This document shows, in pieces, positions 1 through 12,423 of a DNA stretch of 12,423 nucleotides. Position 1 is the first letter of the stretch; the number at the start of each line of letters is the position of its first letter. A program made the position numbers and the translations under genes. The notes beneath the pieces were generated by a model. The model had not been told where the DNA came from. It made no database searches and was given only the letters and a program-made list of their open reading frames with translations. Origin of the DNA: a virus (Duplodnaviria; Heunggongvirae; Uroviricota; Caudoviricetes). Where the stretch lies: the IMG/VR virus record IMGVR_UViG_2778261176_000013, positions 1 to 12,423 of that record; one strand, given 5' to 3'.

Positions 1-342
1 TTAGCCATTCTGATTTTCCTGCATCATGAGAAATACAATCATGGCGGCGCGGAGAGGTCTGGTATCAAATATTGGTCTTACGCCTTTTGCATCAACACAC
101 CATTCAGTTAACTGGTCTAAGATAGAAATCCTGTGTTTCTCAATAATCGGCCATGAGGCGCTAGGATCATTGCAGTAGTCAGGTAAAGGGTTTAATGGCT
201 CAAAAGTTGTATCAGTATTTCCGTAATACCATTTGTTGGTGTTATTCCCTGATGTTTCCGGTTTACATGCCCAAAGGCCTTTAAAAATTATGTCTCCTAC
301 CATTCTGTTAATTTCAAAATCACTTAACTGTGAATAGTCCAT
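1..342 (-). CDS. Hypothetical prophage protein (113 aa)
   Basis: ORF-track frame 1..345. ATG at 342..340 is preceded by AGGAGGTGA and overlaps the TGA stop of the upstream gene (TGATG). Stop TAA at 3..1. No family recognised. Confidence 0.6.
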
Positions 343-944
343 CACTTCACCTCCTGCGGCGGTTCTGGTAGAGGCATCCAGTGGGTTACGAGAACATATT
401 CGACATCACCCTCAGGACTGTCATAGAACAATCCAGAGTGGGATTCGTAGAATGCGATGTAACGCCACCCTGAATGAGTTTGAACAACAACTTCCTGCCC
501 GTCATCCGGCATTCGCTCACTACAGCTTATCCAACCATCCGGAGTTACCGGAGAGTTGCCCGATAGTTTGTTCAACTTGTAAGTCTGGCTTACAGGTTTG
601 GCACCATGAAGCATGGTGGCGCGGCAGGCGTTCCAGCCTTCATCAAAGCCGACTATGCCATTATTTAAAGACGGACGAGCATCTGGCACCACCGGCACTG
701 GCCTGGCTATATATAGCGGCTGAACATACCAGCCCTTTGATAACCAACTGTCAGCAATGTTTTTACTCCTCGTTATTGCCGGAATACCTAAGCCATTTTC
801 TGAATGCAGCCATGCCACCGGCTCCTCTTCTAGCGATGCCAGAGCAATTTCATAAGCCCGGCGCTCAATATTGTCTCGCACGTCCAGGCTGCCTATGCGT
901 TCTTTGATTTCTTTAATCATTTCTTTGTCGGTTAAAGTTGTCAT
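342..944 (-). CDS. DUF551-like prophage protein (200 aa)
   Basis: ATG at 944 with GAGGA 9 nt upstream. C-terminal motif [10 protein letters not shown] matches my recollection of the DUF551 signature; the family label is tentative. Confidence 0.7.
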
Positions 945-947
945 GTG

Positions 948-1235
948 TTAGTCCTCATCCACTTCAACGCCATCTTTCAGCGTGATGCCGTGCCAATCAT
1001 CAGCCCAACTGGTTAGCCCTGGCGCATCAATGCTAGGCATATAAACGCTTGCAGTGTGGTAGCCCTTATCGTTATCAATGCTGGCAACGTGCTCGCCGTT
1101 GTATGCGCTCAGCGTGTCCAGGACGCTATAAAACTTTCCTCCGGCTGCCCTGAAATCCTTTACAGCCTTCACAAGGCGATTCCACGCTTTTTCCTGTTCT
1201 GGCGTCAGGTCGATTAATTCCTGCAAAGTTGCCAT
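948..1235 (-). CDS. Hypothetical prophage protein (95 aa)
   Basis: Start trimmed to ATG at 1235, which has AAGGAGGG directly upstream and lies 1 nt after the TGA stop of the upstream gene (TGATATG). The ORF-track start at 1265 would overlap that gene. Confidence 0.6.
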   Translation of the reverse strand: MATLQELIDLTPEQEKAWNRLVKAVKDFRAAGGKFYSVLDTLSAYNGEHVASIDNDKGYHTASVYMPSIDAPGLTSWADDWHGITLKDGVEVDED

Positions 1236-1236
1236 A

Positions 1237-1965
1237 TCACCCTCCTTTGATGCCAATGCCAGCAAGCCAGTTTCTTATGCCGATATATTCAGCGTTCCTG
1301 AAACCGCCATTTACATATATAAATGGCAAGCGAAGATTGTGACCATTGGCTGCCAGGTAGTCTTTACAACCCTGTTCGGTGAAACAGCAGGTAACGAATT
1401 CATCAATATCTTTCACAGCAACGCGCCGCCATTTTTCTGGTGGTTCCCGAAAGTTTTCATGAAGTAGTTCGAGACGACGACTTTGGCGTTTATTGGCTTC
1501 ATTGCCATCTTCATCAACCCAGACAATCCTGTCATAGTCATAATCAGCATCAACAACGATTTCGCGCTTTTGATACACACAAAACATAGGGTCTGACGTT
1601 ATTCGATTATCCTGTGTTCGAATATTTTCACCGATGATGCCAAACGAATCTGGTGCAGATTTTGTCTTCAACTCTTCGATACGTTTGCTTTGAGCTTCCA
1701 GTTCATCAAGAAGCGCAAGCATGGTAGCCGGACTGGCTGCGGCGATGAATTCAGCATTTGCCTGCTGTTCCATTTGGAAATCTTCATCGAAACCGCTTTC
1801 AGGATGCGCTCCTTCAATTCTGCAAATGGGAATATATCCAGCAGCCTCGCGATGAATTAGCGCATCATCACCATCAAATCGGCCCTCTCCATATTCGAGC
1901 GACCATACACCACACGTTGCTTTCTCTGCCTTTTCACGCAGTGCCTGATAGTCAATCTTGCTCAC
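1237..1965 (-). CDS. ead/Ea22-like family protein (242 aa)
   Basis: Start trimmed to GTG at 1965, with AAGGAGGAAACC upstream and a GTGA overlap with the upstream stop. Protein begins SKIDYQALREKAEKA and contains LALLDELEAQSKRIEELK, which resembles Ea22-type prophage proteins as I recall them. Confidence 0.65.
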   Translation of the reverse strand: MSKIDYQALREKAEKATCGVWSLEYGEGRFDGDDALIHREAAGYIPICRIEGAHPESGFDEDFQMEQQANAEFIAAASPATMLALLDELEAQSKRIEELKTKSAPDSFGIIGENIRTQDNRITSDPMFCVYQKREIVVDADYDYDRIVWVDEDGNEANKRQSRRLELLHENFREPPEKWRRVAVKDIDEFVTCCFTEQGCKDYLAANGHNLRLPFIYVNGGFRNAEYIGIRNWLAGIGIKGG

Positions 1966-2621
1966 TGGTTTCCTCCTTTGCGAAGCTGTTCCGCACAATC
2001 CAGCAGGGCGTCCGTCGCTTCTTTCACCGTAACGATGTCGCCATCGTCCAGCCCGACAACCGTCGCGTTCTTAACGAACACCGAGCAAAGGTCATTAAAC
2101 GCCTGCGCCCGCACTTCAGCCAGGCATTTGCGAAACTCGGAAACGTACTGTTCGACGCTCATTCCCCAGCTAAGTGGACATTCATTGAATGTTTCGCCTT
2201 CGTGCTCTTCATCAGGTAGCTCTTTGGTAAAGAACTCACGTTCAATGGCGTGGAGTGTGTCAGCAAAACGACGTAAGTTACTCAAACCTGTCGTAATGGA
2301 GAATTCAGGAGCATCACATCCGACGCCCATCTGCTGATAAACGGCGGTTTTGAAGGCCTTCAGCCCCGCATTCTCCGCCGCCAACGCCGAAAACTTCTCG
2401 TGTGCCAACTTAACAGCCGCATCAGCCTGCTTAATTGACTCAATCGCTTTCTGCTGGTCTTCGGCCAGCGCATTAGCACGCACCAGTTGCACTTCCAGTT
2501 GCGTTGCCAAATCGCTGATCAGCTTTGCCACACTGCGCATATCAACGGCACCACATTCTGCTTTCAGTTCCGAAGCCATCTCATGCCCGGCGGCAACTAA
2601 CCCTTTGATATTACTTTCCAT
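1962..2621 (-). CDS. Hypothetical coiled-coil prophage protein (219 aa)
   Basis: ATG at 2621 with GAGGGT 5-6 nt upstream. N-terminal half is Ala/Glu/Lys/Gln-rich (coiled-coil-like). Stop overlaps the start of the Ea22-like gene (translational coupling). Confidence 0.65.
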   Translation of the reverse strand: MESNIKGLVAAGHEMASELKAECGAVDMRSVAKLISDLATQLEVQLVRANALAEDQQKAIESIKQADAAVKLAHEKFSALAAENAGLKAFKTAVYQQMGVGCDAPEFSITTGLSNLRRFADTLHAIEREFFTKELPDEEHEGETFNECPLSWGMSVEQYVSEFRKCLAEVRAQAFNDLCSVFVKNATVVGLDDGDIVTVKEATDALLDCAEQLRKGGNQ

Positions 2622-2682
2622 CTTTACCCTCGCTTATCCACATAACTTATTGATTACATTGATAACTAAAAAGATCGTCGAT

Positions 2683-3027
2683 TCAGAACTCTTCGATGTT
2701 CCAGCCACCACCTGTTTTCTTTGGTTTAACCGTTACCCCGATGATTCGGAACGGATACTGATCTGCGGCGACTTTGGTTTTCACCCTGGCGTCGTCGGTC
2801 CAGAAACCTTTCACTTCGTGCAGTTCCATCTCTCCGGTGGCGAGCATCACAGCGAAATCTGGCGTATAGAACGTGTTGTCAGCTAACCGCAGCTTGATAC
2901 CCTCGAATCGATACCAGGCGATTTCCCCTGCACGTTTACGCAGCTCAAGGTGCTGGCAATACGCAGATTCAGTTTTGTTCATCTGGCCTGTTTTGAGTCG
3001 ACCAAGAGCCTGTATCTGTTTTCTCAT
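2683..3027 (-). CDS. DUF1064-like protein with PD-(D/E)xK-type motif (114 aa)
   Basis: ATG at 3027 with GAGGT upstream. Contains YTPDF...ELHEVKG, a PD-x(n)-ExK arrangement typical of restriction-endonuclease-fold nucleases. DUF1064 assignment is from memory. Confidence 0.65.
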   Translation of the reverse strand: MRKQIQALGRLKTGQMNKTESAYCQHLELRKRAGEIAWYRFEGIKLRLADNTFYTPDFAVMLATGEMELHEVKGFWTDDARVKTKVAADQYPFRIIGVTVKPKKTGGGWNIEEF

Positions 3028-3115
3028 GATTTACCTCTGAGGTAATTAAAAACCACATAAGACATGAAATCAATAGAGTTTATAATATTTTGTTACCTAA
3101 CAGGTAATTATCGAG
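3028..3115 (-). promoter_or_regulatory. Second PL-like promoter-operator cassette between the P-like and DUF1064-like genes
   Basis: Minus-strand reading: operator B (3093-3107), 19-bp gap, -35 TTGATT (3073..3068), 17-bp spacer, -10 TTTAAT (3050..3045), operator A (3031-3045) overlapping the -10 and the SD of the gene starting at 3027. Shares CTATTGA and ATTACCTCA with the PL-like region. Confidence 0.5.
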
Positions 3116-3119
3116 GCGT

Positions 3120-3139
3120 AAAAAAATGCGCTATCGCGC
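3120..3139 (-). terminator. Weak tR2-like intrinsic terminator immediately after the P-like gene
   Basis: On the minus strand GCGC-GATA-GCGC, then A, then T7. The stem is only 4 bp. Confidence 0.4.
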
Positions 3140-3144
3140 TGGTA

Positions 3145-3921
3145 TTACTTGATAAATCCTGCCGCCTTTCCCCGCCTGTATTCCTCCATCAGCCACTGCG
3201 CCGGTGTTATTCCCCCAAGGGTGGCGGCGTTAGGCATGCACCCGAAACTTCGCCCTGGTGGATGGTAAACGTCTCTCCCTGTGTCCGGAGGTGTACTCAT
3301 GGGCTCTGGCTTTGCCTGTATGCTGATCACCGGATCGGGTATCTGCTGTCCGGAAGCCACCTTTTTCGCCCAATCATCGAGCAGCCTGCGCGCGTGTTTC
3401 TCAACCTCAATCTCGCTAAGCTGGCGCTGATACATTGCACGGCGGGTATCACATACGACCCAGTACATAACCGGATGTCGCCACGGGAATCTTTCGGGAC
3501 CACCAGGATATAAACTTTTTTCCTTGCTGTACCGGTGAAACTCCGCCATCACATCGTCAATGGTGACGCCAAGAACCATCTTGCTGTCTTTGCACCACTT
3601 GATGAATTGCCCAGGCGACGGCCAGAACGGAGATTCACTGGCGCGGGCGTGGCGCATACCAGCGTTAACCTGTTCCATTGTTGTGATCCCATTCTCCAGA
3701 AACGCAAGCATCCATTGCTTACGGAATTCATTAAGTTTGTTCTGCTCCCTTATGGTCGAAACGCTTGCAGGAAATGCAGCCTGTAACTGGACAAATAGTT
3801 CATTGAAAATTCTAGCAACCTGCTCCTTTTTGCCATTGCTGTCACGCCGCTCTTCATGCACAGCAACACCATGCTCACGTAAGCGATCGTACTCATTGAG
3901 AAGTTCTGGAGTTGATTTCAT
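3145..3921 (-). CDS. Replication protein P-like (DnaB helicase loader)
   Basis: [44 protein letters not shown] closely parallels the lambda P segment [23 protein letters not shown]...PFLPSPGQFVAWC as I recall it. Start overlaps the end of the O-like gene, as in lambda. Confidence 0.85.
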
Positions 3922-4723
3922 CCCACACCCCTTCTATCCAGTCAGTGTTATTCCAGTCAAGCTCATCGCTTTTCCCGGCGTTTTTTGATTTTCCCCTGAT
4001 ATGATTTACGTGCCTGGCGAATTTTTGTTCCCACTGAACCTGCGTGAACACTTTGCCCTCAGCCATCCAGTAATCCCGGAATGCAGCAAGTTCAGCAGGT
4101 GTAAATTCCGGTTCCGGCAGGGCCGTTCCCCACAGCGCAGCACGCCGTCGAAAATCCGGCGACGGATGCCAGCCATCGGTCATCGGAAATTTCCCAATAG
4201 GTTCACTCAGGCCATCCAGAAATGCAGGTTCTGCCACCTGCAACGGCGTACCGTTCGCTTCACTGGTCGGATCACTCTCGCGCGCGTGCGCTATGTGTGG
4301 GGTTTTATATATATCTTCCTCTTCCTCTTCCTCTGGTAACTCCTTTTGTAACGCTGTTGGCGTTACTTTTTGCGTTACTCGTTTTCGATGCTCTGCCACT
4401 CTTCTATTCGTAAGTGCACGTTTTTTCGATGATTCTCCATTATGTCGCTCAAAGTTTGGAAGAATTAGTTTGCCGTCATGATAAGCAAGCCATCCGACGC
4501 TAATGAGGGCGTCAGCAAATCCTGTAATAAAAGCGAGTCTATCAAGTACTCCTTTTGTAACGCTGCCAGCGTTACCGTCTATTGTTTGCTGGTCAGCCCA
4601 TGCCCATATACGAACCAGCTTTCCAAGAACAGCATCTGGATCAATACCCAGAATTTCTGCTATCTGAAAAATTTCAGGTTTATCAGGAGTGATAACTTCA
4701 ACCTTAATCCAGCTGCTTGCCAT
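3893..4723 (-). CDS. Replication initiator / replisome organiser (O-like)
   Basis: Sits immediately upstream of and overlapping the P-like gene. Start trimmed to ATG at 4723 (AGAGGGGAAA SD); the ORF-track GTG at 4741 is less likely. Has an acidic linker (EEEEEED) and contains palindromic iteron-like DNA repeats. Confidence 0.75.
4341..4383. repeat. Iteron-like palindrome cluster inside the O-like gene (candidate origin element)
   Basis: CTCCTTTTGTAACGCTG-TTG-GCGTTAC, then TTTTT-GCGTTAC. Palindrome GTAACGC/GCGTTAC at 4348-4366 plus a third half-site at 4372-4378. Adjacent to (CG)4 at 4281-4288, AT-rich TTTTATATATAT at 4303-4314 and a (CTTCCT)3 repeat. Confidence 0.5.
4560..4585. repeat. Second copy of the iteron-like element inside the O-like gene
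   Basis: TCCTTTTGTAACGCTG-C-CAGCGTTAC; 19-bp perfect palindrome at 4567-4585. The shared 17-nt left arm is identical to the copy at 4341, but the two copies fall in different reading frames of the O-like ORF. Confidence 0.5.
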
Positions 4724-4916
4724 AGGTTTCCCCTCTTGCACTCTTTAGTGCACAAGCAAATTCATTACGATGGCGGTTGGCGCTATTCATTGCACATTCA
4801 ACACATGTTCCGTTCAGAACATACCTTTCAGAGAGATGGCCGTGACGGCACCGCTTTCCTGTGAAATAGCGATTTAACCCGGCTTTTGCGGCCTCCATTC
4901 TGGTTACTATCTTCAA
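4704..4916 (-). CDS. Small zinc-ribbon protein in the cII position (64-70 aa)
   Basis: Cys/His cluster CRHGH...CVEC. Lies between the cro-like and O-like genes. Start is ambiguous: TTG at 4916 (AAGGGG upstream) or ATG at 4898. Overlaps the O-like start by about 20 nt in another frame. Confidence 0.45.
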
Positions 4917-4994
4917 TTTTTCCGCCCCTTTTTGTTATTGATATTGGCTATTTTGCACAATTGGAAAATTTGATCAACCAGATTTGGTTTTTTA

Positions 4995-5009
4995 TTACCT
5001 TTGAGGTAC
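4995..5009. promoter_or_regulatory. Isolated operator-family site downstream of the cro-like gene
   Basis: TTACC-TTTGA-GGTAC (9/10 half-site match). Preceded on the minus strand by CATATCTATT, the same 10-mer found upstream of the PL-like -35. Confidence 0.4.
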
Positions 5010-5019
5010 GAATAGATAT

Positions 5020-5043
5020 GAAAAGACCGCCGGGTGGCGGTCT
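5020..5043 (-). terminator. tR1-like hairpin between the cro-like gene and the cII-position ORF
   Basis: Perfect 8-bp stem AGACCGCC / GGCGGTCT with a 4-nt loop, followed on the minus strand by TTTT then CATATCTATT. Confidence 0.55.
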
Positions 5044-5064
5044 ACAGAGGGTTGTAGCTGGATA

Positions 5065-5295
5065 TCATGAGTAGAAGAAGTATGCCAGTTCTGCTTTTGA
5101 GCGCAGCCATTGTCTTGTTTTACAGGCTTTAAAAAGCCCATTCATCAATACTTTACCTGGCATTTTGCGCTTACCTGTTAAGTGAGTCTGGATATAGTGA
5201 CTCGTCGTTCCGGCTTCCTGTGCGAAGGCTTCACGCTCATCCGGAGTAAGTGCAAGCCAGTGCTTTTTGAAATCGAAATGTCCGTTATCGCTCAT
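5065..5295 (-). CDS. Cro-like HTH DNA-binding protein (76 aa)
   Basis: Small protein divergent from the repressor gene, with an HTH-like segment REAFAQEAGTTSHYIQTHLTGKR. It is the first gene of the operon containing O and P. Confidence 0.65.
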   Translation of the reverse strand: MSDNGHFDFKKHWLALTPDEREAFAQEAGTTSHYIQTHLTGKRKMPGKVLMNGLFKACKTRQWLRSKAELAYFFYS

Positions 5296-5449
5296 AGCTA
5301 TTGCCTGATATTTATTTCAGATAATAAATATTCACCCATAAGGTAACAAAAATCAAGGATAGTTACCCATGAGGTGCATTTACCTGTTGGGTAATATTGC
5401 TTTAAATTGAATCATCTACTGATTCATATATGAGGCGATTTTCCAGAAA
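5296..5449. promoter_or_regulatory. Divergent repressor/cro control region (OR-like) with three operator-type sites
   Basis: Three sites of the ATTACC-N5-GGTAAT family: 5332-5346 (TCACC-CATAA-GGTAA, 9/10), 5363-5377 (TTACC-CATGA-GGTGC, 8/10), 5380-5394 (TTACC-TGTTG-GGTAA, perfect). Candidate minus-strand promoter: -35 TTGTTA 5349..5344, -10 TATTAT 5326..5321. Confidence 0.6.
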
Positions 5450-6034
5450 ATGAAAAGTATCCAGGACGTCCGCAGGCAAAATCTCAACGACTTGATCGAC
5501 CGTGAATTCAATGGTGTTCAGACGCGGATGGCAGAAAAACTTGGAACTCAGGCAAATCTGGTAAACCGCTGGGCTCTTGGCAAGAAGGTTATCGGCGACC
5601 AGGTTGCGCGAAAAATTGAAGCTGCCGCCAATAAACCACGTAACTGGCTTGATATCGATCGCTCGCTTTCTCAGGAAGGTTTTCAGCCTGTCGGCCCAAG
5701 CGACATTGGTCAGCTGGCGGCTCACAACCTGGAACGCTGGATGAGCGAAAGCCGCGACCTTTCAACTCAGGGAAAACTTCACCGCGCATCCGGCGTCGCC
5801 CAGGTGACAATCAGCCGCCTGTTAAACAATGAGGTCAGTGTTTCCATTTCCACCCTGGAGAATGTTGCATCAGCATTCGGGCGTCACGGCTATGAATTAC
5901 TGATTCACCCGCACGACCCTGCGACCATCAACTATGACCGCTCGCGCTACGCATTGTTACCCGAAACCGAGAAAGCAAAGATCGAAAGTTACATTGAATT
6001 TGTCATCAACCAGAACGAAAAAAACAAACAATAA
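5450..6034 (+). CDS. CI-like immunity repressor with two HTH domains and no S24 peptidase domain (194 aa)
   Basis: Two XRE-type HTH segments (GVQTRMAEKLGTQANLVNRW and ASGVAQVTISRLLNNEVSVSISTLENVASAF). No Ser/Lys autopeptidase region recognisable. Divergent from cro across an operator-rich intergenic region and followed by a strong intrinsic terminator. Confidence 0.7.
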   Translation: MKSIQDVRRQNLNDLIDREFNGVQTRMAEKLGTQANLVNRWALGKKVIGDQVARKIEAAANKPRNWLDIDRSLSQEGFQPVGPSDIGQLAAHNLERWMSESRDLSTQGKLHRASGVAQVTISRLLNNEVSVSISTLENVASAFGRHGYELLIHPHDPATINYDRSRYALLPETEKAKIESYIEFVINQNEKNKQ

Positions 6035-6055
6035 AATCATATTTTTCAGTAAGTA

Positions 6056-6078
6056 AGCCGCCTTCTGGCGGCTTTTTT
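6056..6078 (+). terminator. Intrinsic terminator downstream of the CI-like repressor gene
   Basis: AGCCGCC-TTCT-GGCGGCT stem-loop followed by a T6 tract. Confidence 0.75.
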
Positions 6079-6084
6079 ATTGCC

Positions 6085-6187
6085 TATACTATTACCTAAT
6101 GGGTAATTTTTTTAACTCATATCTATTGACACCAAACCAAATACGCATAATTATTACCTCAACGGTAACAGACCGAGGTAACAAGTT
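6085..6187 (+). promoter_or_regulatory. PL-like early promoter flanked by two perfect operators
   Basis: -35 TTGACA at 6126-6131, with a -10-like CATAATTA at 6146-6153. Operator G (6092-6106) lies 19 bp upstream of -35; operator H (6154-6168) abuts the -10 and covers the likely start site. Confidence 0.6.
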
Positions 6188-6340
6188 ATGCAGTGGAAAA
6201 TCATCAACGGTTGGTACTGCGTTACTGCATGCGGATTCATGAGCTGGAAGTTCCGCACCTTACAGGAAGGCATTAAGTGGGCTTTCGTCAGCAAAGAAGC
6301 TCGCGATGTGGCCAACGATAACGAGATATGGGAGGGCTGA
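6188..6340 (+). CDS. Hypothetical Trp-rich small protein (50 aa), first gene of the PL-like operon; not in the supplied ORF track
   Basis: ATG at 6188 with GAGG 9 nt upstream, 20 nt after operator H. Hand translation: MQWKIINGWYCVTACGFMSWKFRTLQEGIKWAFVSKEARDVANDNEIWEG. Stop TGA at 6338-6340, 2 nt before the next ATG. Confidence 0.45.
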   Translation: MQWKIINGWYCVTACGFMSWKFRTLQEGIKWAFVSKEARDVANDNEIWEG

Positions 6341-6342
6341 TA

Positions 6343-6642
6343 ATGAACGTTAATCAGCAGAAAAATCTTCAAAAAATCATGCTGGCATTCGACAAGGACT
6401 ACCGCCTGTCAGAACAGCTATATGACCGACAAGTTGAACTGATCGAGAGCATCCGGCTTCATCAACTAGCCTCAACTTTCGACGCTGTAACAGGTAAAGG
6501 CGTTCGCCAGGAAGTACTGGAGGCCGCTAAAGACAGTCCAGAGTTCGAAGAACTGATGGATTCCTACCGGCGCGAGGCAATGGCAATTATCGCCCGCTGG
6601 GATCTGGCGGATCAGCTTGATGGACAGAGGGACGCGGCATGA
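6343..6642 (+). CDS. Hypothetical protein (99 aa) in the Gam/RacC position upstream of the exonuclease
   Basis: ATG at 6343 preceded by GGGAGGG. Stop overlaps the exonuclease start (ATGA). No family recognised. Confidence 0.6.
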   Translation: MNVNQQKNLQKIMLAFDKDYRLSEQLYDRQVELIESIRLHQLASTFDAVTGKGVRQEVLEAAKDSPEFEELMDSYRREAMAIIARWDLADQLDGQRDAA

Positions 6643-7538
6643 TGCGGAACGCTGGAATCATGGATAGAACAAAATACATCGGAGGAAGCGATGTTGCAGG
6701 GATTCTTGGAATTAGCCCATGGCGCACCCCGCTTGAGGTTTATCTGGATAAGGTCCAGCCACGTGTCAAACCAGTAGACCCAAGCAAGCAGAAAGTTTTC
6801 ACGCGTGGCCAGCGTATGGAGCCATACGTAATAGACCTGCTTTCTGAGGAAACAGGGATGGAAATCGTTCATCGCGGAAACCGCTATATCCACCGTGATT
6901 ACGATTTTATTGCAGCTGAGATCGATGCAGAAGCAGCGTCAGGCGAGAACATTGAGATCAAAACAGTTAGTCCGTTCAAAGCCAAAGAATGGGGAGAAAT
7001 CCAGACAGATGCAATTCCTGTGCATTACACGGCCCAGGCCATGCACGGGTTGATGGTTACAAACAAACAGGTATGCGTTTTCGGTGTGCTTATCGGTGGC
7101 GACGACTTCCGAATCTATCGGGTTGAGCGTGATGAAGAAACTATCCAGGCGATCTTAGAAAAAGAAATCGCTTTCTGGGACCGAGTGAAAAATCTTAACC
7201 CGCCGGAAGCTACCAGCGTAAGCGATGTATCGCTGATGTTTGAGAAAGATGCCGGGACAAGTATCGAGGCTGACGGAAAGGCACTCTCACTATTCAACGA
7301 TCTACGAGACATGAAGTCACGCAGAAAATTACTGGAAGAAGAAATAGCTATATCAGAAGAGAAGCTGAAGATGTACATGCAAGAGCACTCAGTCCTGACC
7401 CTAGACGGAAAGCCGCTCTGCACATGGAAATCTCAGATCAGCAACAGATTCGACCAGAAGCTATTCCAGTCAGTACACCCTGAGTTATTCGAAAAATTCA
7501 AAACAACAACGACACAACGCGTCTTCAGAATGAAGTAA
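6639..7538 (+). CDS. YqaJ-type phage exonuclease (RecE/Red-alpha functional analogue)
   Basis: N-terminal KYIGGSDVAGILGISPWRTPLEVY is the hallmark of YqaJ-like viral recombinase exonucleases. Immediately upstream of recT. Confidence 0.85.
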   Translation: MMRNAGIMDRTKYIGGSDVAGILGISPWRTPLEVYLDKVQPRVKPVDPSKQKVFTRGQRMEPYVIDLLSEETGMEIVHRGNRYIHRDYDFIAAEIDAEAASGENIEIKTVSPFKAKEWGEIQTDAIPVHYTAQAMHGLMVTNKQVCVFGVLIGGDDFRIYRVERDEETIQAILEKEIAFWDRVKNLNPPEATSVSDVSLMFEKDAGTSIEADGKALSLFNDLRDMKSRRKLLEEEIAISEEKLKMYMQEHSVLTLDGKPLCTWKSQISNRFDQKLFQSVHPELFEKFKTTTTQRVFRMK

Positions 7539-7547
7539 GGAGAAAAA

Positions 7548-8570
7548 ATGTCTATCAATGCACTTAAGGCAGCAGCTACCGGTAACCAAGTTGCACATCA
7601 TAATGAGAAACCAACAACTCTGGCCGGACTTCTGGCAGACCCAAAAATTAAAGCTCAGATGGCTTTGGCACTTCCAAAGCACATGACAGCAGACCGTCTG
7701 GCGCGCATAGCAACCACAGAGATCCGAAAGGTTCCAAAACTTGCATCATGCGACCAAGCCAGCTTCCTGGGGGCAATTATGCAATGTGCCCAATTGGGTC
7801 TTGAACCAGGCGGAGCTCTTGGACACGCTTACCTGATACCGTTCGACAAACGCCAGAAAGTAAATGGAAGATGGGAAACCGTATCTACAGAAGCACAGCT
7901 GATTATCGGCTATCGCGGAATGATTGACCTTGCCCGCCGCTCTGGGCAGATCCTGAGTATCTCAGCTCGTACCGTACATACAAACGACAAATTCAGCTAC
8001 TCATACGGCATGGAAGAAACGCTCGAGCATTTACCTTGCGAAACAGGTGACCGCGGAGAATTAACACACGTTTACGCCGTTGCACGACTGAAAGATGGCG
8101 GAGTCCAATTTGAAGTTATGAGCCGGGCAGCCGTTGAGAAAGTTCGTGCACTGAGCAAAGCCGGTAGCAGTGGCCCATGGGTTGATCACTTCGATGAGAT
8201 GGCTAAAAAAACAGTAATTCGCCGACTGTTCAAATATCTTCCTGTTTCTATTGAAATGCAGAAGGCTGTTGTTATGGATGAGCGCGCTGAAGCTGGACTT
8301 AGCCAAGATAACGCAGCTGTTATCACTGGTGAATATTCCGTAGTTGACGATGAGCGTCAACACCTATCGCCAATTTCAGATTCAGAACGAGAAGAAGCTC
8401 GAGAATATATCATCGCGATACTTAATAGCCTGGATCCATCTGCTGAAGATGCAAAAACGATGTTCAAGCGCGCTGAAAATGAAATTAACACCATGGCTGA
8501 AAAGCTCGGTGATGAATATCACCAAAAATTCATGATGACGCTTAACGATATGCGTCCAGAATTCGAGTAA
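7548..8570 (+). CDS. recT: RecT single-strand annealing recombinase
   Basis: AAGGAG SD. Long stretches match Rac RecT as I recall it: LPKHMTADRLARIATTEIRKVPKL, QLIIGYRGMIDLARRSGQI, THVYAVARLKDGG.QFEVM, EMAKKT.IRRLFKYLPVSIE. Confidence 0.92.
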   Translation: MSINALKAAATGNQVAHHNEKPTTLAGLLADPKIKAQMALALPKHMTADRLARIATTEIRKVPKLASCDQASFLGAIMQCAQLGLEPGGALGHAYLIPFDKRQKVNGRWETVSTEAQLIIGYRGMIDLARRSGQILSISARTVHTNDKFSYSYGMEETLEHLPCETGDRGELTHVYAVARLKDGGVQFEVMSRAAVEKVRALSKAGSSGPWVDHFDEMAKKTVIRRLFKYLPVSIEMQKAVVMDERAEAGLSQDNAAVITGEYSVVDDERQHLSPISDSEREEAREYIIAILNSLDPSAEDAKTMFKRAENEINTMAEKLGDEYHQKFMMTLNDMRPEFE

Positions 8571-8619
8571 CCACCACCGCGGCGCCACGTGCGCCTCACT
8601 GCAACCAAGAGAGGTATTC

Positions 8620-8868
8620 ATGAAAGGTGCATTAGGTAAGAAAGAACTCCTGGCGGTGGTGCCACTGTCATGGAGCACTATCGACCGTATGGAGCGCGCA
8701 GGGGAATTTCCTAAACGCTGGTATATCACCGATAAACGCTGCGCATGGAACCGTGACGAAGTTGAGCGTTGGCTTGATGAACGTCAGGCAGCAAGCCCGG
8801 CAGAGTTCCAGGGTAAAAAGCCTCCTGTTCAGCAACGTGTATATCGTCCTGTGAGCAACGCTGCATGA
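8620..8868 (+). CDS. AlpA/Xis-family small DNA-binding protein (excisionase-like regulator)
   Basis: AGAGAGG SD. Motif SWSTIDRMERAGEFPKRWYITDKRCAWNRDEVERWL resembles AlpA/excisionase winged-helix proteins. Confidence 0.7.
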   Translation: MKGALGKKELLAVVPLSWSTIDRMERAGEFPKRWYITDKRCAWNRDEVERWLDERQAASPAEFQGKKPPVQQRVYRPVSNAA

Positions 8869-8977
8869 GTGCGCTGCTAAGGCACTGGAGCAAATGGTCA
8901 GGATGGTACTTATTCCTGGCCTCTGTTTCAGCATGGCTTTATCTGCTGGCATTAATTTTCAGAGAGGGTTGGATTAA

Positions 8978-9277
8978 GTGAGAAAGTTAAGCCGACTTGA
9001 AAAATATCACATGAACAAGGTTTCAATGCGCAGTCCGTCAAAGATTGTCGCCGTTACTCCTGCGGCGATAGAGATCGAAAAACGCGCGATTGAAAGAGAG
9101 AAAAAAGGGCAGTTCCGCATTGCCGCTCACCTTTGGCTTCAGTGTATGGATGTTGCTTCTGGTGATGTTGAGCGTGCAAGGATCGCGGTTCGCAGGGACC
9201 AATGTATCACAAAAGGTAACGGCCTTCGCCGTGGCGACTATAGCGGCATAGGATGTTGTGGGGTGGTTTATGACTAA
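8978..9277 (+). CDS. PerC-like putative transcriptional regulator (99 aa; start uncertain)
   Basis: GTG at 8978 preceded by AGAGAGGG; internal ATGs at 9011 and 9026 are alternatives. RIAAHLWLQCMDVASGDVERARIAVRRDQC resembles the PerC-family pattern. Overlaps the methyltransferase start. Confidence 0.45.
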   Translation: MRKLSRLEKYHMNKVSMRSPSKIVAVTPAAIEIEKRAIEREKKGQFRIAAHLWLQCMDVASGDVERARIAVRRDQCITKGNGLRRGDYSGIGCCGVVYD

Positions 9278-9920
9278 GAAATACACACTAATCTATGCAG
9301 ATCCACCCTGGGTATACCGGGACAAAGCCGCAGATGGTAATCGCGGTGCCGGTTTTAAATATCCGGTTATGAGTGTGCTGGACATCTGCCGCCTTCCTGT
9401 GTGGGATTTGGCCGATGAAAACTGTCTGTTGGCCATGTGGTGGGTGCCAACACAACCACTCGAAGCACTAAAAGTTATTGAAGCCTGGGGATTCCGTCTG
9501 ATGACCATGAAGGGATTCACGTGGATAAAATGTGGTAGTCGACAACCAGATAAACTGGTTATGGGTATGGGTCACATGACTCGCGCCAATAGTGAAGATT
9601 GCCTGTTTGCGGTAAAGGGAAAACTACCTCCGCGCATTAATGCAGGGATCGTTCAGTCATTTACCGCACCGCGACTTGAGCATTCAAGAAAACCAGATGT
9701 CGTTCGTGAAAAACTTGTGCAATTGTTAGGCGATGTTTCTCGCATTGAACTGTTCGCCCGCCAGTCGTCTCATGGCTTCGATGTTTGGGGTAATCAGTGC
9801 GAAGACCCGGCAGTGCAACTACACCCTGGATACGCGTTGGATATTGGCGGATTAACAAATGCATTCAGCAATTCTCCGCTGTCACCAACAGACAACCAGG
9901 GGCGGGAGCGTGCAGCATGA
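9270..9920 (+). CDS. MT-A70-family DNA N6-adenine methyltransferase (orphan, no adjacent restriction enzyme)
   Basis: N-terminal YTLIYADPPWVY carries the DPPW catalytic motif. ATG at 9270 (GTG at 9258 is an alternative). Stop overlaps the start of the next ORF (ATGA). Confidence 0.8.
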   Translation: MTKKYTLIYADPPWVYRDKAADGNRGAGFKYPVMSVLDICRLPVWDLADENCLLAMWWVPTQPLEALKVIEAWGFRLMTMKGFTWIKCGSRQPDKLVMGMGHMTRANSEDCLFAVKGKLPPRINAGIVQSFTAPRLEHSRKPDVVREKLVQLLGDVSRIELFARQSSHGFDVWGNQCEDPAVQLHPGYALDIGGLTNAFSNSPLSPTDNQGRERAA

Positions 9921-10165
9921 AGCAGATTATGGTTGCACACAACGGCGTCAGGTTTGAAGTCGTCATGGTTTTGACTAAGTTCCACAATGATGAGGTATTG
10001 CACAGAAAAGAAACTGTAACTTACCGTTATAAACACCGCAGTTCAGCTGTTAGAAAATTACGGAAGATTGCGGAAGAACTAAAAAATGATCCTCATCGTG
10101 TTATTGAGGTAAAAGGCAACCCATATAAAATCAAAACTTCAGTGGAGCTAAGACATATGCAATAA
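9917..10165 (+). CDS. Hypothetical basic protein (82 aa), coupled to the methyltransferase
   Basis: ATG at 9917 overlaps the methyltransferase stop, with GGGAGCG upstream. Lys/Arg-rich. Followed by a 324-bp intergenic region with a terminator-like element. Confidence 0.5.
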   Translation: MKQIMVAHNGVRFEVVMVLTKFHNDEVLHRKETVTYRYKHRSSAVRKLRKIAEELKNDPHRVIEVKGNPYKIKTSVELRHMQ

Positions 10166-10296
10166 AATCACGCCTGACGAATCGCGATTATCTCGCTATT
10201 GGTATTGCAGAGATTGCTGGACTCAATGGCGCATGATTTGACAATGCCGCCAGAGCTATCGCATACTGACCGCACTAGAAAACAAACAGCGGTCAT

Positions 10297-10324
10297 CCGC
10301 ACCCGATAGCTTTGCGGCTTTTTT
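10297..10324 (+). terminator. Possible intrinsic terminator after the methyltransferase operon
   Basis: CCGCA ... TGCGG stem (5 bp) with an 11-nt loop, followed by C and a T6 tract. Confidence 0.35.
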
Positions 10325-10409
10325 ATGCCTGCAATCTGGCATAGTCACATCCGTACAAAGGTCGGGTGGAGAGGCGTAATACAACACCCGAAAGGGGAAT
10401 ATGCCCGGA

Positions 10410-10489
10410 GCTACTGTTTGTGCTCTAGTTGACACCCGATCACCAGTTACTAACTGGTTTTCGTAACTAAAAACAAACAGGAGGTCATC
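10410..10489 (+). promoter_or_regulatory. Antirepressor upstream region with TTGACA hexamer and a 15-bp perfect palindrome
   Basis: TTGACA at 10429-10434. Perfect palindrome CCAGTTA-C-TAACTGG at 10443-10457. No convincing -10 hexamer found by eye. Confidence 0.4.
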
Positions 10490-11140
10490 ATGACCAGTCA
10501 ACTCATCCCCGTATTCAACGGCACTATATCCAACGAAACCGCTCTTCTCGTTAATGCCCGTGATTTACACACTTTCCTCGATGTGGGTAAGCGATTTGCT
10601 TCGTGGATTGTCGAACGAATTGCTGAATATGGTTTCGTTGAAAATCAAGACTTTATGATTATTTCCCAAGTTCGGGAAAAAATAGGCAGAGGCCGTCCTG
10701 CAAAAGACTACCACCTCACCCTCGATACAGCCAAAGAGCTGGCGATGGTCGAGCGTAATGAAAAAGGTCGTCAGGTACGACGCTACTTCATTGAATGCGA
10801 GAAACGTTTAAGACAACAAGAAACAAAAGTGGAGAAGGTCTTGTCAGGCTTCATGCCCGCCATTATGGAGGCGATCAAGCTGGAAGACAAAAAAGAATAC
10901 AGTGCCCCACTGAAGCCCGGCTACCGCAGCCTGATTCACTCGCCGTCTGGTGTTCTCGGCCTGACGGAGAACTCACTGCTGATGAATCTGCTGAACCAGT
11001 TACAGGAAGACGGGCACGACGTATCGGGTGCGGCGGCGGAGCTGACCACCATGTTCTGCTACATCGTCGGTGTGAGCAAATGCCTGCGTGATATCCAGAC
11101 CCACGCGGAGTACATCAACGACAAGGCAGGGTTCTTCTGA
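10490..11140 (+). CDS. Phage antirepressor, AntA/AntB N-terminal domain type (216 aa)
   Basis: AGGAGG 7 nt upstream of ATG. N-terminal region (LIPVFNGT...ARDLHTFLDVGKRFASWIVERIAEYGFVENQDF...KDYHLTLDTAKELAMVERNEKGRQVRRYF) matches AntA/AntB antirepressor domains as I recall them. Confidence 0.75.
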   Translation: MTSQLIPVFNGTISNETALLVNARDLHTFLDVGKRFASWIVERIAEYGFVENQDFMIISQVREKIGRGRPAKDYHLTLDTAKELAMVERNEKGRQVRRYFIECEKRLRQQETKVEKVLSGFMPAIMEAIKLEDKKEYSAPLKPGYRSLIHSPSGVLGLTENSLLMNLLNQLQEDGHDVSGAAAELTTMFCYIVGVSKCLRDIQTHAEYINDKAGFF

Positions 11141-11172
11141 CGGGCGGCGGCACATGGATGTGTCGGGCAAAA

Positions 11173-12423
11173 TTATTCCCCCGCCATCCACTTCTCAAAC
11201 TTCGACGGGGAGAACGGAATCAGATCCGTATGCTCCCCGTCAATCCATGAATCAATCATATCGGCCCACTGCTGCAACATGTAGGCGCGCTGTCTGGCGT
11301 ATTCCGCTTTGTTGTATACGGCGCGCACACCTTTCTGCTCATGTGCCAGAGCCTTTTCAATCCAGTCTGAAGGATAACCAGCCTCATGCAACAACGTACT
11401 GGCTGTACGGCGCATATCATGTACAGTGAAGTCCTGAATATGCTCACCATCTTCATTTATTATTTTCACCGTTCTGTCGATCAGAGAGTTCAGCGCGGCA
11501 TTAGATAATGGCTTCCGGAAATTGTAACGACCAGGAACCAGATATTCACTTCCACCAGCGCACATCTGCAACCCGACCAATATATCCTGTGCCTGTTTAG
11601 GCAGGTAAATAACGTGCGCCCGGCTTCCCTTCATGCGGTCTGGAGGAATTGTCCATGTCCATTTTTTAAAATCTATTTCATCCCACGTTGCATTGGTGAA
11701 TTCGCCCTTACGAACCATAGTGATAAGCACCAGTTTTAAAGCCATTTTCATAGTGCCCATAGCACCAATGGCATCCAGCGTGCGGAAGAACAGGCCAATT
11801 TCTTCTGGTGTCAGTGTTCGCTCTCGTGGTTTAAATATGGCGATAGACGAAGGTTTAATGTCAGCCGCAGGATTAAACAAACCATGACCACGGTCATTGG
11901 CGTGACGGTATACGCTACTGATGATCTCCCTGGCCTGCACTGCTGTTGCCCGGCCACCGCGTTCGACAATCCGGTCACACAAATCACGAACCATCGATGT
12001 GGTAATTTCAGCCATCATTTTATTGCCAAGAACCGGAAGTATGTCACGGTCGATCACCGCCTGTTTCATTGCGCGGGTACTGTCAGCCAGGATGACGTGT
12101 TTCATATAACTGTCGGTATGTACCGCAAACGTCTCGGCACCACGAATCTTTTTGATACCGTCACGTTTAGCCGCAGCCGGTGACTGGCCTGCTTTAAGCA
12201 GCTTCTTTGCAGCAATCAGTTCTTCTCGCGCTTCTGCCAGGCTGATACCGTCACGCCCATACTGCCCGATTACCAGTGTTTCGCGGCGACCGTTGATACG
12301 GTAGTCATAGCGAAACGAGACCGTGCCTGACGTAAGCACAGCTACATACAGCCCGTCACGATCGGAGACCTTGTACAGTTTGTCCTGCGGCTTGAGGTTT
12401 TTTAATTTTGTATCGGTAAGCAC
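11173..12423 (-). CDS. Tyrosine integrase, P4-type (N-terminus truncated by window edge)
   Basis: N-terminal LTDTKLKNLKP...YKVSDRDGLYVAVLTSGTVSFRYDYRINGRRETL is typical of P4-like integrases. C-terminal catalytic region has HDMRRT and AHEQKGVRAVYNKAEY (conserved Tyr). The ORF runs to the last base of the window. Confidence 0.9.
   Translation of the reverse strand: MLTDTKLKNLKPQDKLYKVSDRDGLYVAVLTSGTVSFRYDYRINGRRETLVIGQYGRDGISLAEAREELIAAKKLLKAGQSPAAAKRDGIKKIRGAETFAVHTDSYMKHVILADSTRAMKQAVIDRDILPVLGNKMMAEITTSMVRDLCDRIVERGGRATAVQAREIISSVYRHANDRGHGLFNPAADIKPSSIAIFKPRERTLTPEEIGLFFRTLDAIGAMGTMKMALKLVLITMVRKGEFTNATWDEIDFKKWTWTIPPDRMKGSRAHVIYLPKQAQDILVGLQMCAGGSEYLVPGRYNFRKPLSNAALNSLIDRTVKIINEDGEHIQDFTVHDMRRTASTLLHEAGYPSDWIEKALAHEQKGVRAVYNKAEYARQRAYMLQQWADMIDSWIDGEHTDLIPFSPSKFEKWMAGE

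Follow-up and report, generated by a model that had tools for sequence, protein, structure and literature searches.

A phiV10-Type Early-Left Arm with a Predicted Orphan MT-A70 Methyltransferase and a Rare Cargo Cassette

The present analysis concerns three overlapping open reading frames (ORFs) in a 12,423-nucleotide (nt) stretch of a Caudoviricetes record (IMGVR_UViG_2778261176_000013, positions 1 to 12,423, hereafter "the window"), which encode a PerC-like protein, a predicted MT-A70 adenine methyltransferase, and a basic protein of 82 amino acids (aa). They belong to an early-left arm of the phiV10 type that carries a rare cassette of cargo. The explanation favored for the whole, at a probability of about 0.72, is that the trio lies at the end of a phiV10-like early-left operon, that the methyltransferase is a stand-alone enzyme, and that the 82-aa gene is independent cargo which can be swapped for other genes. 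Annotations of the three genes already exist in RefSeq and for phiV10-like phages, published work has characterized the methyltransferase family, and the locus as a whole is ordinary phage mosaicism with two modest leads.

According to this explanation, transcription of the operon would run from near 6126–6154 to a terminator near 10246–10324. The overlaps of start and stop codons along the operon would exist because the operon is compact, and would not be a sign that the products work together. The methyltransferase would be made only after derepression of the prophage or on infection and would act alone, methylating GATC. The 82-aa protein would act apart from it, with a repressor or a host factor of a co-resident element as its likely target.

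The Slot after the Methyltransferase

The three ORFs are genuine, share the same orientation and are coupled in translation, as the first-pass annotation of this DNA had described them. The overlaps are present where it had placed them: PerC-like and methyltransferase ORFs share 8 nt (ATGACTAA), and methyltransferase and 82-aa ORFs share ATGA. The respective PHROG families are 868, 359, and 9805. The further step of that annotation, that is, to read the overlaps as the mark of a three-part machine, fails, since the same ATGA junction serves unrelated downstream genes.

The evidence comes from two sets of loci, namely 80 viral contigs in which the methyltransferase shares 97% identity or more with that of the window, and 80 species-level loci with homologous methyltransferases at 42–81% identity. 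In the viral contigs, the gene which follows the methyltransferase is DUF1382 (51 contigs), a lambda-type Ser/Thr phosphatase (25), or the 82-aa gene (4), and whichever gene it is, its start is offset by −3, within the same ATGA, in 80 out of 80 cases. Immediately 3′ of the methyltransferase gene lies a recombination slot which retains the ATGA junction. In Enterobacter phage BUCT554 this slot is empty, and in Klebsiella phage ST11-OXA245phi3.2 it contains two other small ORFs. The species-level loci have no homologue of the 82-aa gene (0/80), and thus the proposal that its product is a conserved partner of the methyltransferase finds no support in either set. Among 5426 complete Escherichia coli genomes, the 82-aa gene occurs in 20 and the surrounding 1.9-kb region (AlpA, PerC, and the start of Ant included) matches in 874. 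Because of this distribution, the 82-aa protein is not considered a partner of the methyltransferase.

The AlpA, membrane ORF, PerC-like, and methyltransferase genes form a conserved block of the phiV10-like lineage. Beyond it, from the methyltransferase to int, contigs and relatives hold different contents, and the earlier description of this stretch as a variable cargo slot near the integrase is upheld.

Phage Lineage and Extent of the Operon

The window belongs to a phiV10/epsilon15-like (Uetakevirus) prophage, a temperate podovirus. BLAST blocks show phiV10 to be colinear with window positions 4795–6642, 8567–9921, and 11173–12423 at 94–98% identity, with two modules replaced. In the complete E. 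coli genome closest to the window, the nine genes of the operon recur, with int and then guaA after them, and the phage isolate HEMP4 carries the entire 1.9-kb region at 97% identity.

The order of the operon is a promoter-like site, two small ORFs, YqaJ exonuclease, RecT, AlpA, a 38-aa membrane ORF, and the PerC-like, methyltransferase, and 82-aa genes. The phiV10 layout is alike at its start, where the repressor terminator is followed by p39 and p38. A consensus-based scan of the + strand between 6154 and 10104 found no promoter or terminator match, and the site at 6126–6154 is the only good promoter match on this strand. Consequently, no such site sets the trio apart from RecT, AlpA, and the membrane ORF, and the self-contained three-gene operon that had been proposed is abandoned. 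The junctions point in the same direction: AlpA and the membrane ORF share ATGA, and the membrane ORF and the GTG start of the PerC-like gene share GTGA. Since AlpA, the membrane ORF, and the trio all overlap in a chain, five consecutive genes are coupled. The trio is therefore read, from sequence signals, as the last part of an early-left operon of nine genes, for recombination and excision, in a prophage integrated at guaA.

The 3′ end of this operon is probably a long hairpin followed by UUUUUU, just after the 82-aa gene (table 1), which the simple terminator scan missed because its loop exceeds the limit of the scan. It should be weighed against this delimitation that both the promoter and the terminator calls are consensus matches and not transcript data.

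Two further observations were made in this part of the window. The membrane ORF is unannotated in RefSeq for the closest E. coli genome, although it is found in 79 of the 80 contigs. Positions 6643–8566 carry separate YqaJ and RecT genes without DNA-level homology to the fused RecE-RecT gene of phiV10, and this exonuclease/RecT module is a second mosaic replacement inside the same operon.

The Methyltransferase and Its Likely Substrate

The methyltransferase matches the complete MT-A70 profile (PF05063) with 79 bits against a cut-off of 23.9, residues 5–176 corresponding to profile positions 1–172 of 172. The DPPW motif (residues 11–14) is invariant in seven homologues. The core of the protein covers residues 1–176 and is followed by a variable C-terminal tail (177–216). 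The PADLOC model MTase_II also matches (E = 6e-77), and the best relatives in the PDB are Tetrahymena MTA1, which is the closest solved structure, and human METTL3. Homologues stand alone in nin or replication regions of Erwinia and Pasteurella phages, without the PerC or the 82-aa gene, and core-only homologues of ∼175 aa are widespread in Firmicutes.

The earlier designation as an orphan MT-A70 enzyme with an intact DPPW is retained, but the suggestion of a partner encoded downstream is not, as the protein partner in the characterized family is encoded upstream (PMC10810198). The lack of a neighboring restriction endonuclease is confirmed for the window, the closest E. coli prophage, and the whole phiV10 genome, and the only endonuclease-like ORF in the window is the YqaJ recombination exonuclease. 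In Klebsiella pneumoniae ATCC 13883 (locus L095, 1992–2498), a 168-aa ORF matches a PD-(D/E)XK profile weakly (PDDEXK_5, E = 5e-5, short of the cut-off). It is situated directly 5′ of the methyltransferase homologue, overlaps it, and may be a restriction partner in that lineage. The C-terminal tail was considered as a marker of the neighboring genes and was rejected, as it shows no co-variation with either flanking gene; the BUCT554 methyltransferase has the same tail despite having no downstream gene.

The enzyme of the Stx phage Ss-VASD is 83% identical to that of the window over residues 1–187 and diverges fully thereafter. The Ss-VASD locus agrees with the published phiPA8 locus in the terminator CCCCGACATCCCGTCGGGG between Ant and the next gene. 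When the Ss-VASD protein segment TLIYADPPWTFRD is compared with the phiPA8 mutagenesis primer TLIYAAPPATFRD, the differences are the engineered D-to-A and W-to-A changes (PMC10810198). In phiPA8, M.EcoPA8orf6770P (gp5) increases spontaneous prophage induction and virulence, and the change of DPPW to APPA abolishes the function. The enzyme pairs 1:1 with PNB-2 (gp6), the product of the gene immediately upstream, and this complex prefers 16S rRNA as its substrate; the authors suggest that the C-terminal tail of the Shiga toxin-producing E. coli (STEC) type, ∼27 residues long, is important for PNB-2 (PMC10810198). A dependence on partners is frequent among MT-A70 enzymes, for instance METTL3-METTL14, the MTA1 complex, and PNB-2 (PMC7544214; PMC10810198). 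By the account of PMC10810198 and PMC6602927, overproduced M.EcoGV, the close relative from E. coli O104:H4, methylates GATC in vivo.

We infer that the methyltransferase of the window is a stand-alone orphan N6-methyladenine (m6A) enzyme, made after derepression or upon infection, which most likely methylates replicating DNA of phage and host with a Dam-like (GATC) specificity. Several points weigh against this assignment. It is based on a relative, M.EcoGV, at 83% identity, and the GATC specificity of M.EcoGV was taken from the two later papers which cite the original one. The target-recognition loop (residues 87–104) and the C-terminal tail are unlike those of the Stx enzyme, and the specificity could therefore differ. 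In addition, the purified Stx enzyme alone showed almost no methylation of DNA in vitro (PMC10810198), and this near-inactivity makes a stand-alone action on GATC less likely.

The published alternative would make the protein chiefly a 16S rRNA methyltransferase which tunes spontaneous prophage induction, as in phiPA8, where rRNA methylation would raise induction. The 83% identity of the core to the enzyme family of PMC10810198 and the near-inactivity of the purified Stx enzyme on DNA favor this explanation. It stays a live alternative but is unlikely for the window phage, because the preference for rRNA needed PNB-2, and PNB-2 is absent from the window and from all 80 phiV10-like contigs. The 80 species-level loci also lack it, and the protein encoded upstream of the window methyltransferase is unalignable to PNB-2. 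The STEC-type tail of the Stx enzyme was not found in the window methyltransferase, which has no similarity to it past residue 187, and the own promoter and upstream terminator of the Stx-phage pair were not seen in the window. Moreover, the modified base was never identified in the phiPA8 study (PMC10810198), whereas relatives carry annotations as GATC enzymes, and in vivo methylation of GATC is reported for M.EcoGV.

The PerC-Like Gene

The PerC-like protein matches PF06069 with 30.3 bits (cut-off 22.6), over profile positions 5–50 of 90 only, and PHROG 868, named "transcriptional activator," with an E value of 1e-54. The GTG at 8978, chosen as the start in the first-pass annotation, is corroborated by homologues in phages of other genera (Enterobacter, Klebsiella), in which R6, E8, K9, Y10, and H11 of the N-terminal 11 residues are invariant. 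Given this conservation between genera, the true product is probably 99 aa long. Public annotations use shorter forms, with the start at ATG 9011 in phiV10 and at ATG 9026 in RefSeq.

By its position, the PerC-like protein could be the partner of the methyltransferase, that is, a functional analogue of PNB-2 which binds the enzyme and steers it to a particular nucleic acid. Its gene stands where PNB-2 does in Stx phages and is likewise coupled by an overlapping start (PMC10810198), and the pairing with the methyltransferase is seen in 79 of the 80 phiV10-like contigs. PerC-family genes are also located directly 5′ of far more divergent MT-A70 genes (42–47% identity) in Buttiauxella (L105) and Kosakonia (L149), in the latter case within a different neighborhood and as a fusion of a winged-helix with a PerC domain. 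Such a partnership is still improbable in view of the wider distribution. In relatives from Klebsiella, Enterobacter, and Superficieibacter, PerC and the methyltransferase have one or two further genes between them, any PerC-like gene is present in only 4 of the 80 species-level methyltransferase loci, and the satellites L003 and L004 have PerC-like genes without a methyltransferase. Furthermore, the tail of the methyltransferase is not correlated with the presence of PerC, and the PerC-like protein has no sequence similarity to PNB-2. Homology between PNB-2 and PerC-like proteins was rejected, as no alignment was obtained even when the Kosakonia fusion was included.

The Kosakonia sacchari gene (L149, 2073–2501) encodes a 142-aa protein with a winged-helix (PaaX/penicillinase-repressor-like) domain and a PerC domain. 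It overlaps the start of the divergent MT-A70 methyltransferase by ATGA, in a neighborhood unrelated to phiV10.

The 82-aa Protein and the Epsilon Slot of Satellites

The 82-aa ORF is a real coding gene. It is preceded by a GGGAG Shine-Dalgarno sequence 8 nt 5′ of its start and is under purifying selection, with a ratio of nonsynonymous to synonymous substitution rates (dN/dS) of 0.11–0.37 against four divergent satellite homologues. The statement that the protein belongs to no recognizable family needs amendment, since it matches PHROG 9805 over its full length; it stands insofar as PHROG 9805 is a family of unknown function. The AF2 model, built on an alignment of six sequences, predicts a beta-beta-alpha-beta-beta topology with a predicted local distance difference test (pLDDT) score of 83.7, and Pfam, NCBIfam, and PADLOC returned nothing meaningful. 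The family is rare: a profile search among 5.8 billion proteins gave six clusters at 90% identity, a word-indexed search gave one cluster, and an exhaustive HMMER search of 1.84 billion proteins gave two credible representatives plus one spurious repetitive protein.

Every member from outside the phiV10-like phages belongs to a small P4-satellite-type element that has an integrase but no methyltransferase; four such contexts, independent of one another, were seen (L003 to L006/L007). The order in these elements is integrase, sometimes AlpA, an ORF of the P4 cI-region/Icd-like/Ash type, the 82-aa homologue, small ORFs, DUF4222, and a primase or helicase. In four out of four contexts (L003–L006), the homologue follows the cI-region/Icd-like ORF with an 8-nt overlap. 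The upstream ORFs share PHROGs 1743, 6196, and 29966 with the P4 ORF that precedes epsilon (named Icd-like in RefSeq), and P4 epsilon has the same 8-nt overlaps on both sides. Since the upstream PHROGs and the overlaps agree, the satellite homologues occupy the slot of P4 epsilon.

On these grounds, the 82-aa protein may tentatively be placed among small binding proteins of the antirepressor/derepressor functional class, independent of the methyltransferase, a possibility which we put clearly below even odds. Against it, gene position is the sole basis of the assignment, and the copy in the window is part of a phage operon and not of an epsilon slot. Homology to P4 epsilon was rejected (no BLASTP match and an hhalign probability of 1%), and Foldseek gave no match to the model at an E value of 0.001 or better, which leaves the fold search uninformative.

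A broader proposal joins this role to the previous section: PerC-family proteins would be alternative targeting or activating subunits of phage MT-A70 enzymes, in the role of PNB-2, and, independently, the 82-aa family would represent a novel derepressor of the epsilon type that P4-like satellites and temperate phages exchange. As a whole, this proposal is unlikely. If PerC proteins were indeed MT-A70 subunits, a biochemical mechanism would be provided for a family of small virulence "activators."

Also unlikely is a function of the 82-aa protein in counter-defence, that is, as an anti-restriction or anti-CRISPR-like inhibitor in the cargo slot next to int. A small, basic, rare, and mobile gene in a variable slot would suit such a function, but Foldseek was empty at the above threshold, PADLOC and Pfam had no match, and the satellite homologues reside in an immunity and derepression operon and not in a defence hotspot. 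Very improbable, finally, is the earlier view of the 82-aa protein as a dedicated specificity or regulatory subunit which would make the trio one functional system: its ATGA coupling to the methyltransferase, its basic character (isoelectric point [pI] 10.2), and the frequent need of MT-A70 enzymes for partners (PMC7544214; PMC10810198) are outweighed by 76 of the 80 near-identical methyltransferases without the gene and with unrelated genes at the same junction, by its absence from all species-level loci, by its presence in 20 of the 5426 E. coli genomes against 874 with matching surroundings, by satellite homologues without a methyltransferase, by the upstream position of the published partner gene PNB-2 (PMC10810198), and by the unchanged methyltransferase tail in BUCT554.

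Some observations on the family are added here. In L004, matches to IsrK and to two C4 antisense RNAs (the P1/P4 immunity RNA clan) flank the 82-aa homologue (7577–7765 and 8367–8454). As a general feature beside 82-aa homologues, these immunity RNAs were rejected, for they were found in L004 and not in L003, L005, or L006. The phage-borne variants of the window and of L025/L026 differ by six nonsynonymous and two synonymous core changes (dN/dS 0.84, as opposed to 0.11–0.37 in the deeper comparisons), which hints, in this small sample, at relaxed or diversifying selection after capture by phages.

The Cassette, the Ant Gene, and Associated RNA Elements

The 82-aa gene is the first gene of a mosaic cassette which replaces the 193-bp DUF1382 gene of phiV10 and whose two ends coincide exactly with the stops of the methyltransferase and int genes. 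Ant accompanies the 82-aa gene in all four viral contigs that carry the latter. A single cassette of 1.25 kb brought in the 82-aa gene together with Ant and the sRNA-Xcc1-type leader of Ant. Between the two genes lies a gap of 324 nt (10166–10489), which folds with −113.5 kcal/mol (z = −4.35 vs. shuffled sequence), and a promoter-like site (10238–10267) lies within the 5′ arm of its long hairpin.

RF02221 also matches twice upstream of Ant in the Stx phage Ss-VASD (L008, 1723–1812 and 2262–2347), and in APSE phages sRNA-Xcc1 is found upstream of a gene with an ORF6N domain (PMC7313666). Thus, besides being a Xanthomonas sRNA, the element has the look of a mobile cis-leader of genes of the antirepressor type. 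The Ant proteins of the window and of Ss-VASD are 47% identical. In the latter phage, a 60-aa "hypothetical protein" (L008, 1956–2138) and its upstream leader match window positions 10232–10752 at 83% identity; together they are a duplicated sRNA-Xcc1 leader and a truncated N-terminal remnant of Ant, placed upstream of the intact Ant.

Table 1. Features of the Early-Left Arm and of the Adjacent Cassette (Window Coordinates)
Feature	Position	Strand	Evidence and remarks
Sigma-70-like promoter match, the best one upstream of the early-left operon	6126–6154	+	TTGACA-17-AATTAT, consensus match; just past the repressor-gene terminator (6055–6074)
AlpA-family regulator/excisionase gene	8620–8868	+	PF05930, 24.2 bits vs. 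cut-off 21; PHROG 66; 78/80 related viral contigs
38-aa membrane ORF, equivalent of phiV10 p35	8865–8981	+	Translation and phiV10 annotation; 79/80 contigs
PerC-family small protein, 99 aa	8978–9277 (GTG 8978, TAA 9275–9277)	+	PF06069, PHROG 868; 79/80 contigs
Orphan MT-A70 (beta-class) N6-adenine methyltransferase, 216 aa	9270–9920 (ATG 9270, TGA 9918–9920)	+	PF05063, DPPW; activity predicted
82-aa basic protein, pI 10.2	9917–10165 (ATG 9917, TAA 10163–10165)	+	PHROG 9805; first gene of the inserted cassette
Mosaic cassette, 1251 bp (82-aa gene, structured gap, Ant gene)	9922–11172	+	BLAST blocks vs. phiV10
Long hairpin then UUUUUU, probable intrinsic terminator of the early-left operon	10246–10324	+	Fold
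sRNA-Xcc1-family RNA element (RF02221), Ant leader	10360–10449	+	65.2 bits vs. gathering score 53, E = 1e-11, full model
AntA-type antirepressor gene	10490–11140	+	PF08346, 97 bits; homologous to PNB-1 (gp7) of Stx phages
P4-type tyrosine integrase gene	11173–12423, continues past the window end	−	98% identical to phiV10 int; guaA beyond it in the closest genome

Implications

Overlaps in phage operons are poor grounds for claiming a functional partnership, given that a single ATGA junction is used here by three or more unrelated genes in the downstream position. The enzyme of Stx phages had been presented as seemingly restricted to them and reliant on PNB-2, but very close relatives are present in non-Stx phiV10-like phages without PNB-2, and these relatives bear on the question of whether GATC in DNA or 16S rRNA is the substrate of the family. 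The two leads are the recurrent adjacency of PerC-like and MT-A70 genes, and a rare small protein of the epsilon slot of P4-like satellites which has moved into a temperate phage alongside an antirepressor gene.

Comparison with Known Systems

The PerC-like protein resembles the PerC/Pch small transcriptional activators (PF06069) in its Pfam match above the cut-off, its small size, and its location in a prophage. It differs from them in that the match is partial, and it also weakly resembles the ANR family, below the cut-off of that family.

Similarly, the 82-aa homologues of satellites share with P4 epsilon, the helper derepression protein, the position after the cI-region/Icd-like ORF and ahead of small ORFs and the primase, as well as a similar size (72–93 aa vs. 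95 aa) and basic charge. The families are different (PHROG 9805 vs. 10016), and the copy in the window is carried by a temperate phage and not by a satellite.

The M.EcoPA8orf6770P/M.EcoGV enzymes are like that of the window in being orphan MT-A70 proteins with DPPW, encoded in an int-proximal early region behind a small overlapping upstream gene, and Stx phages also have Ant (PNB-1) and DUF1382 genes in the same neighborhood. The arrangement is distinct in that the upstream gene is PNB-2 in Stx phages and PerC-like in the window, whereas Ant is located upstream in the former and downstream in the latter. The phiPA8 pair has its own promoter and an upstream terminator, neither of which is visible for the pair of the window.

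The closest correspondence is with phiV10 itself, whose early-left arm p36–p32 (AlpA, membrane protein, PerC-like, methyltransferase, DUF1382) is 98.4% identical at the nt level to window positions 8567–9921. A 64-aa DUF1382 gene follows the methyltransferase in phiV10, as opposed to the 1.25-kb cassette with the 82-aa gene, the structured RNA gap, and Ant in the window, and the exonuclease/RecT module also differs. In both, the gene order, the overlapping junctions, and the P4-type integrase facing the operon are the same.

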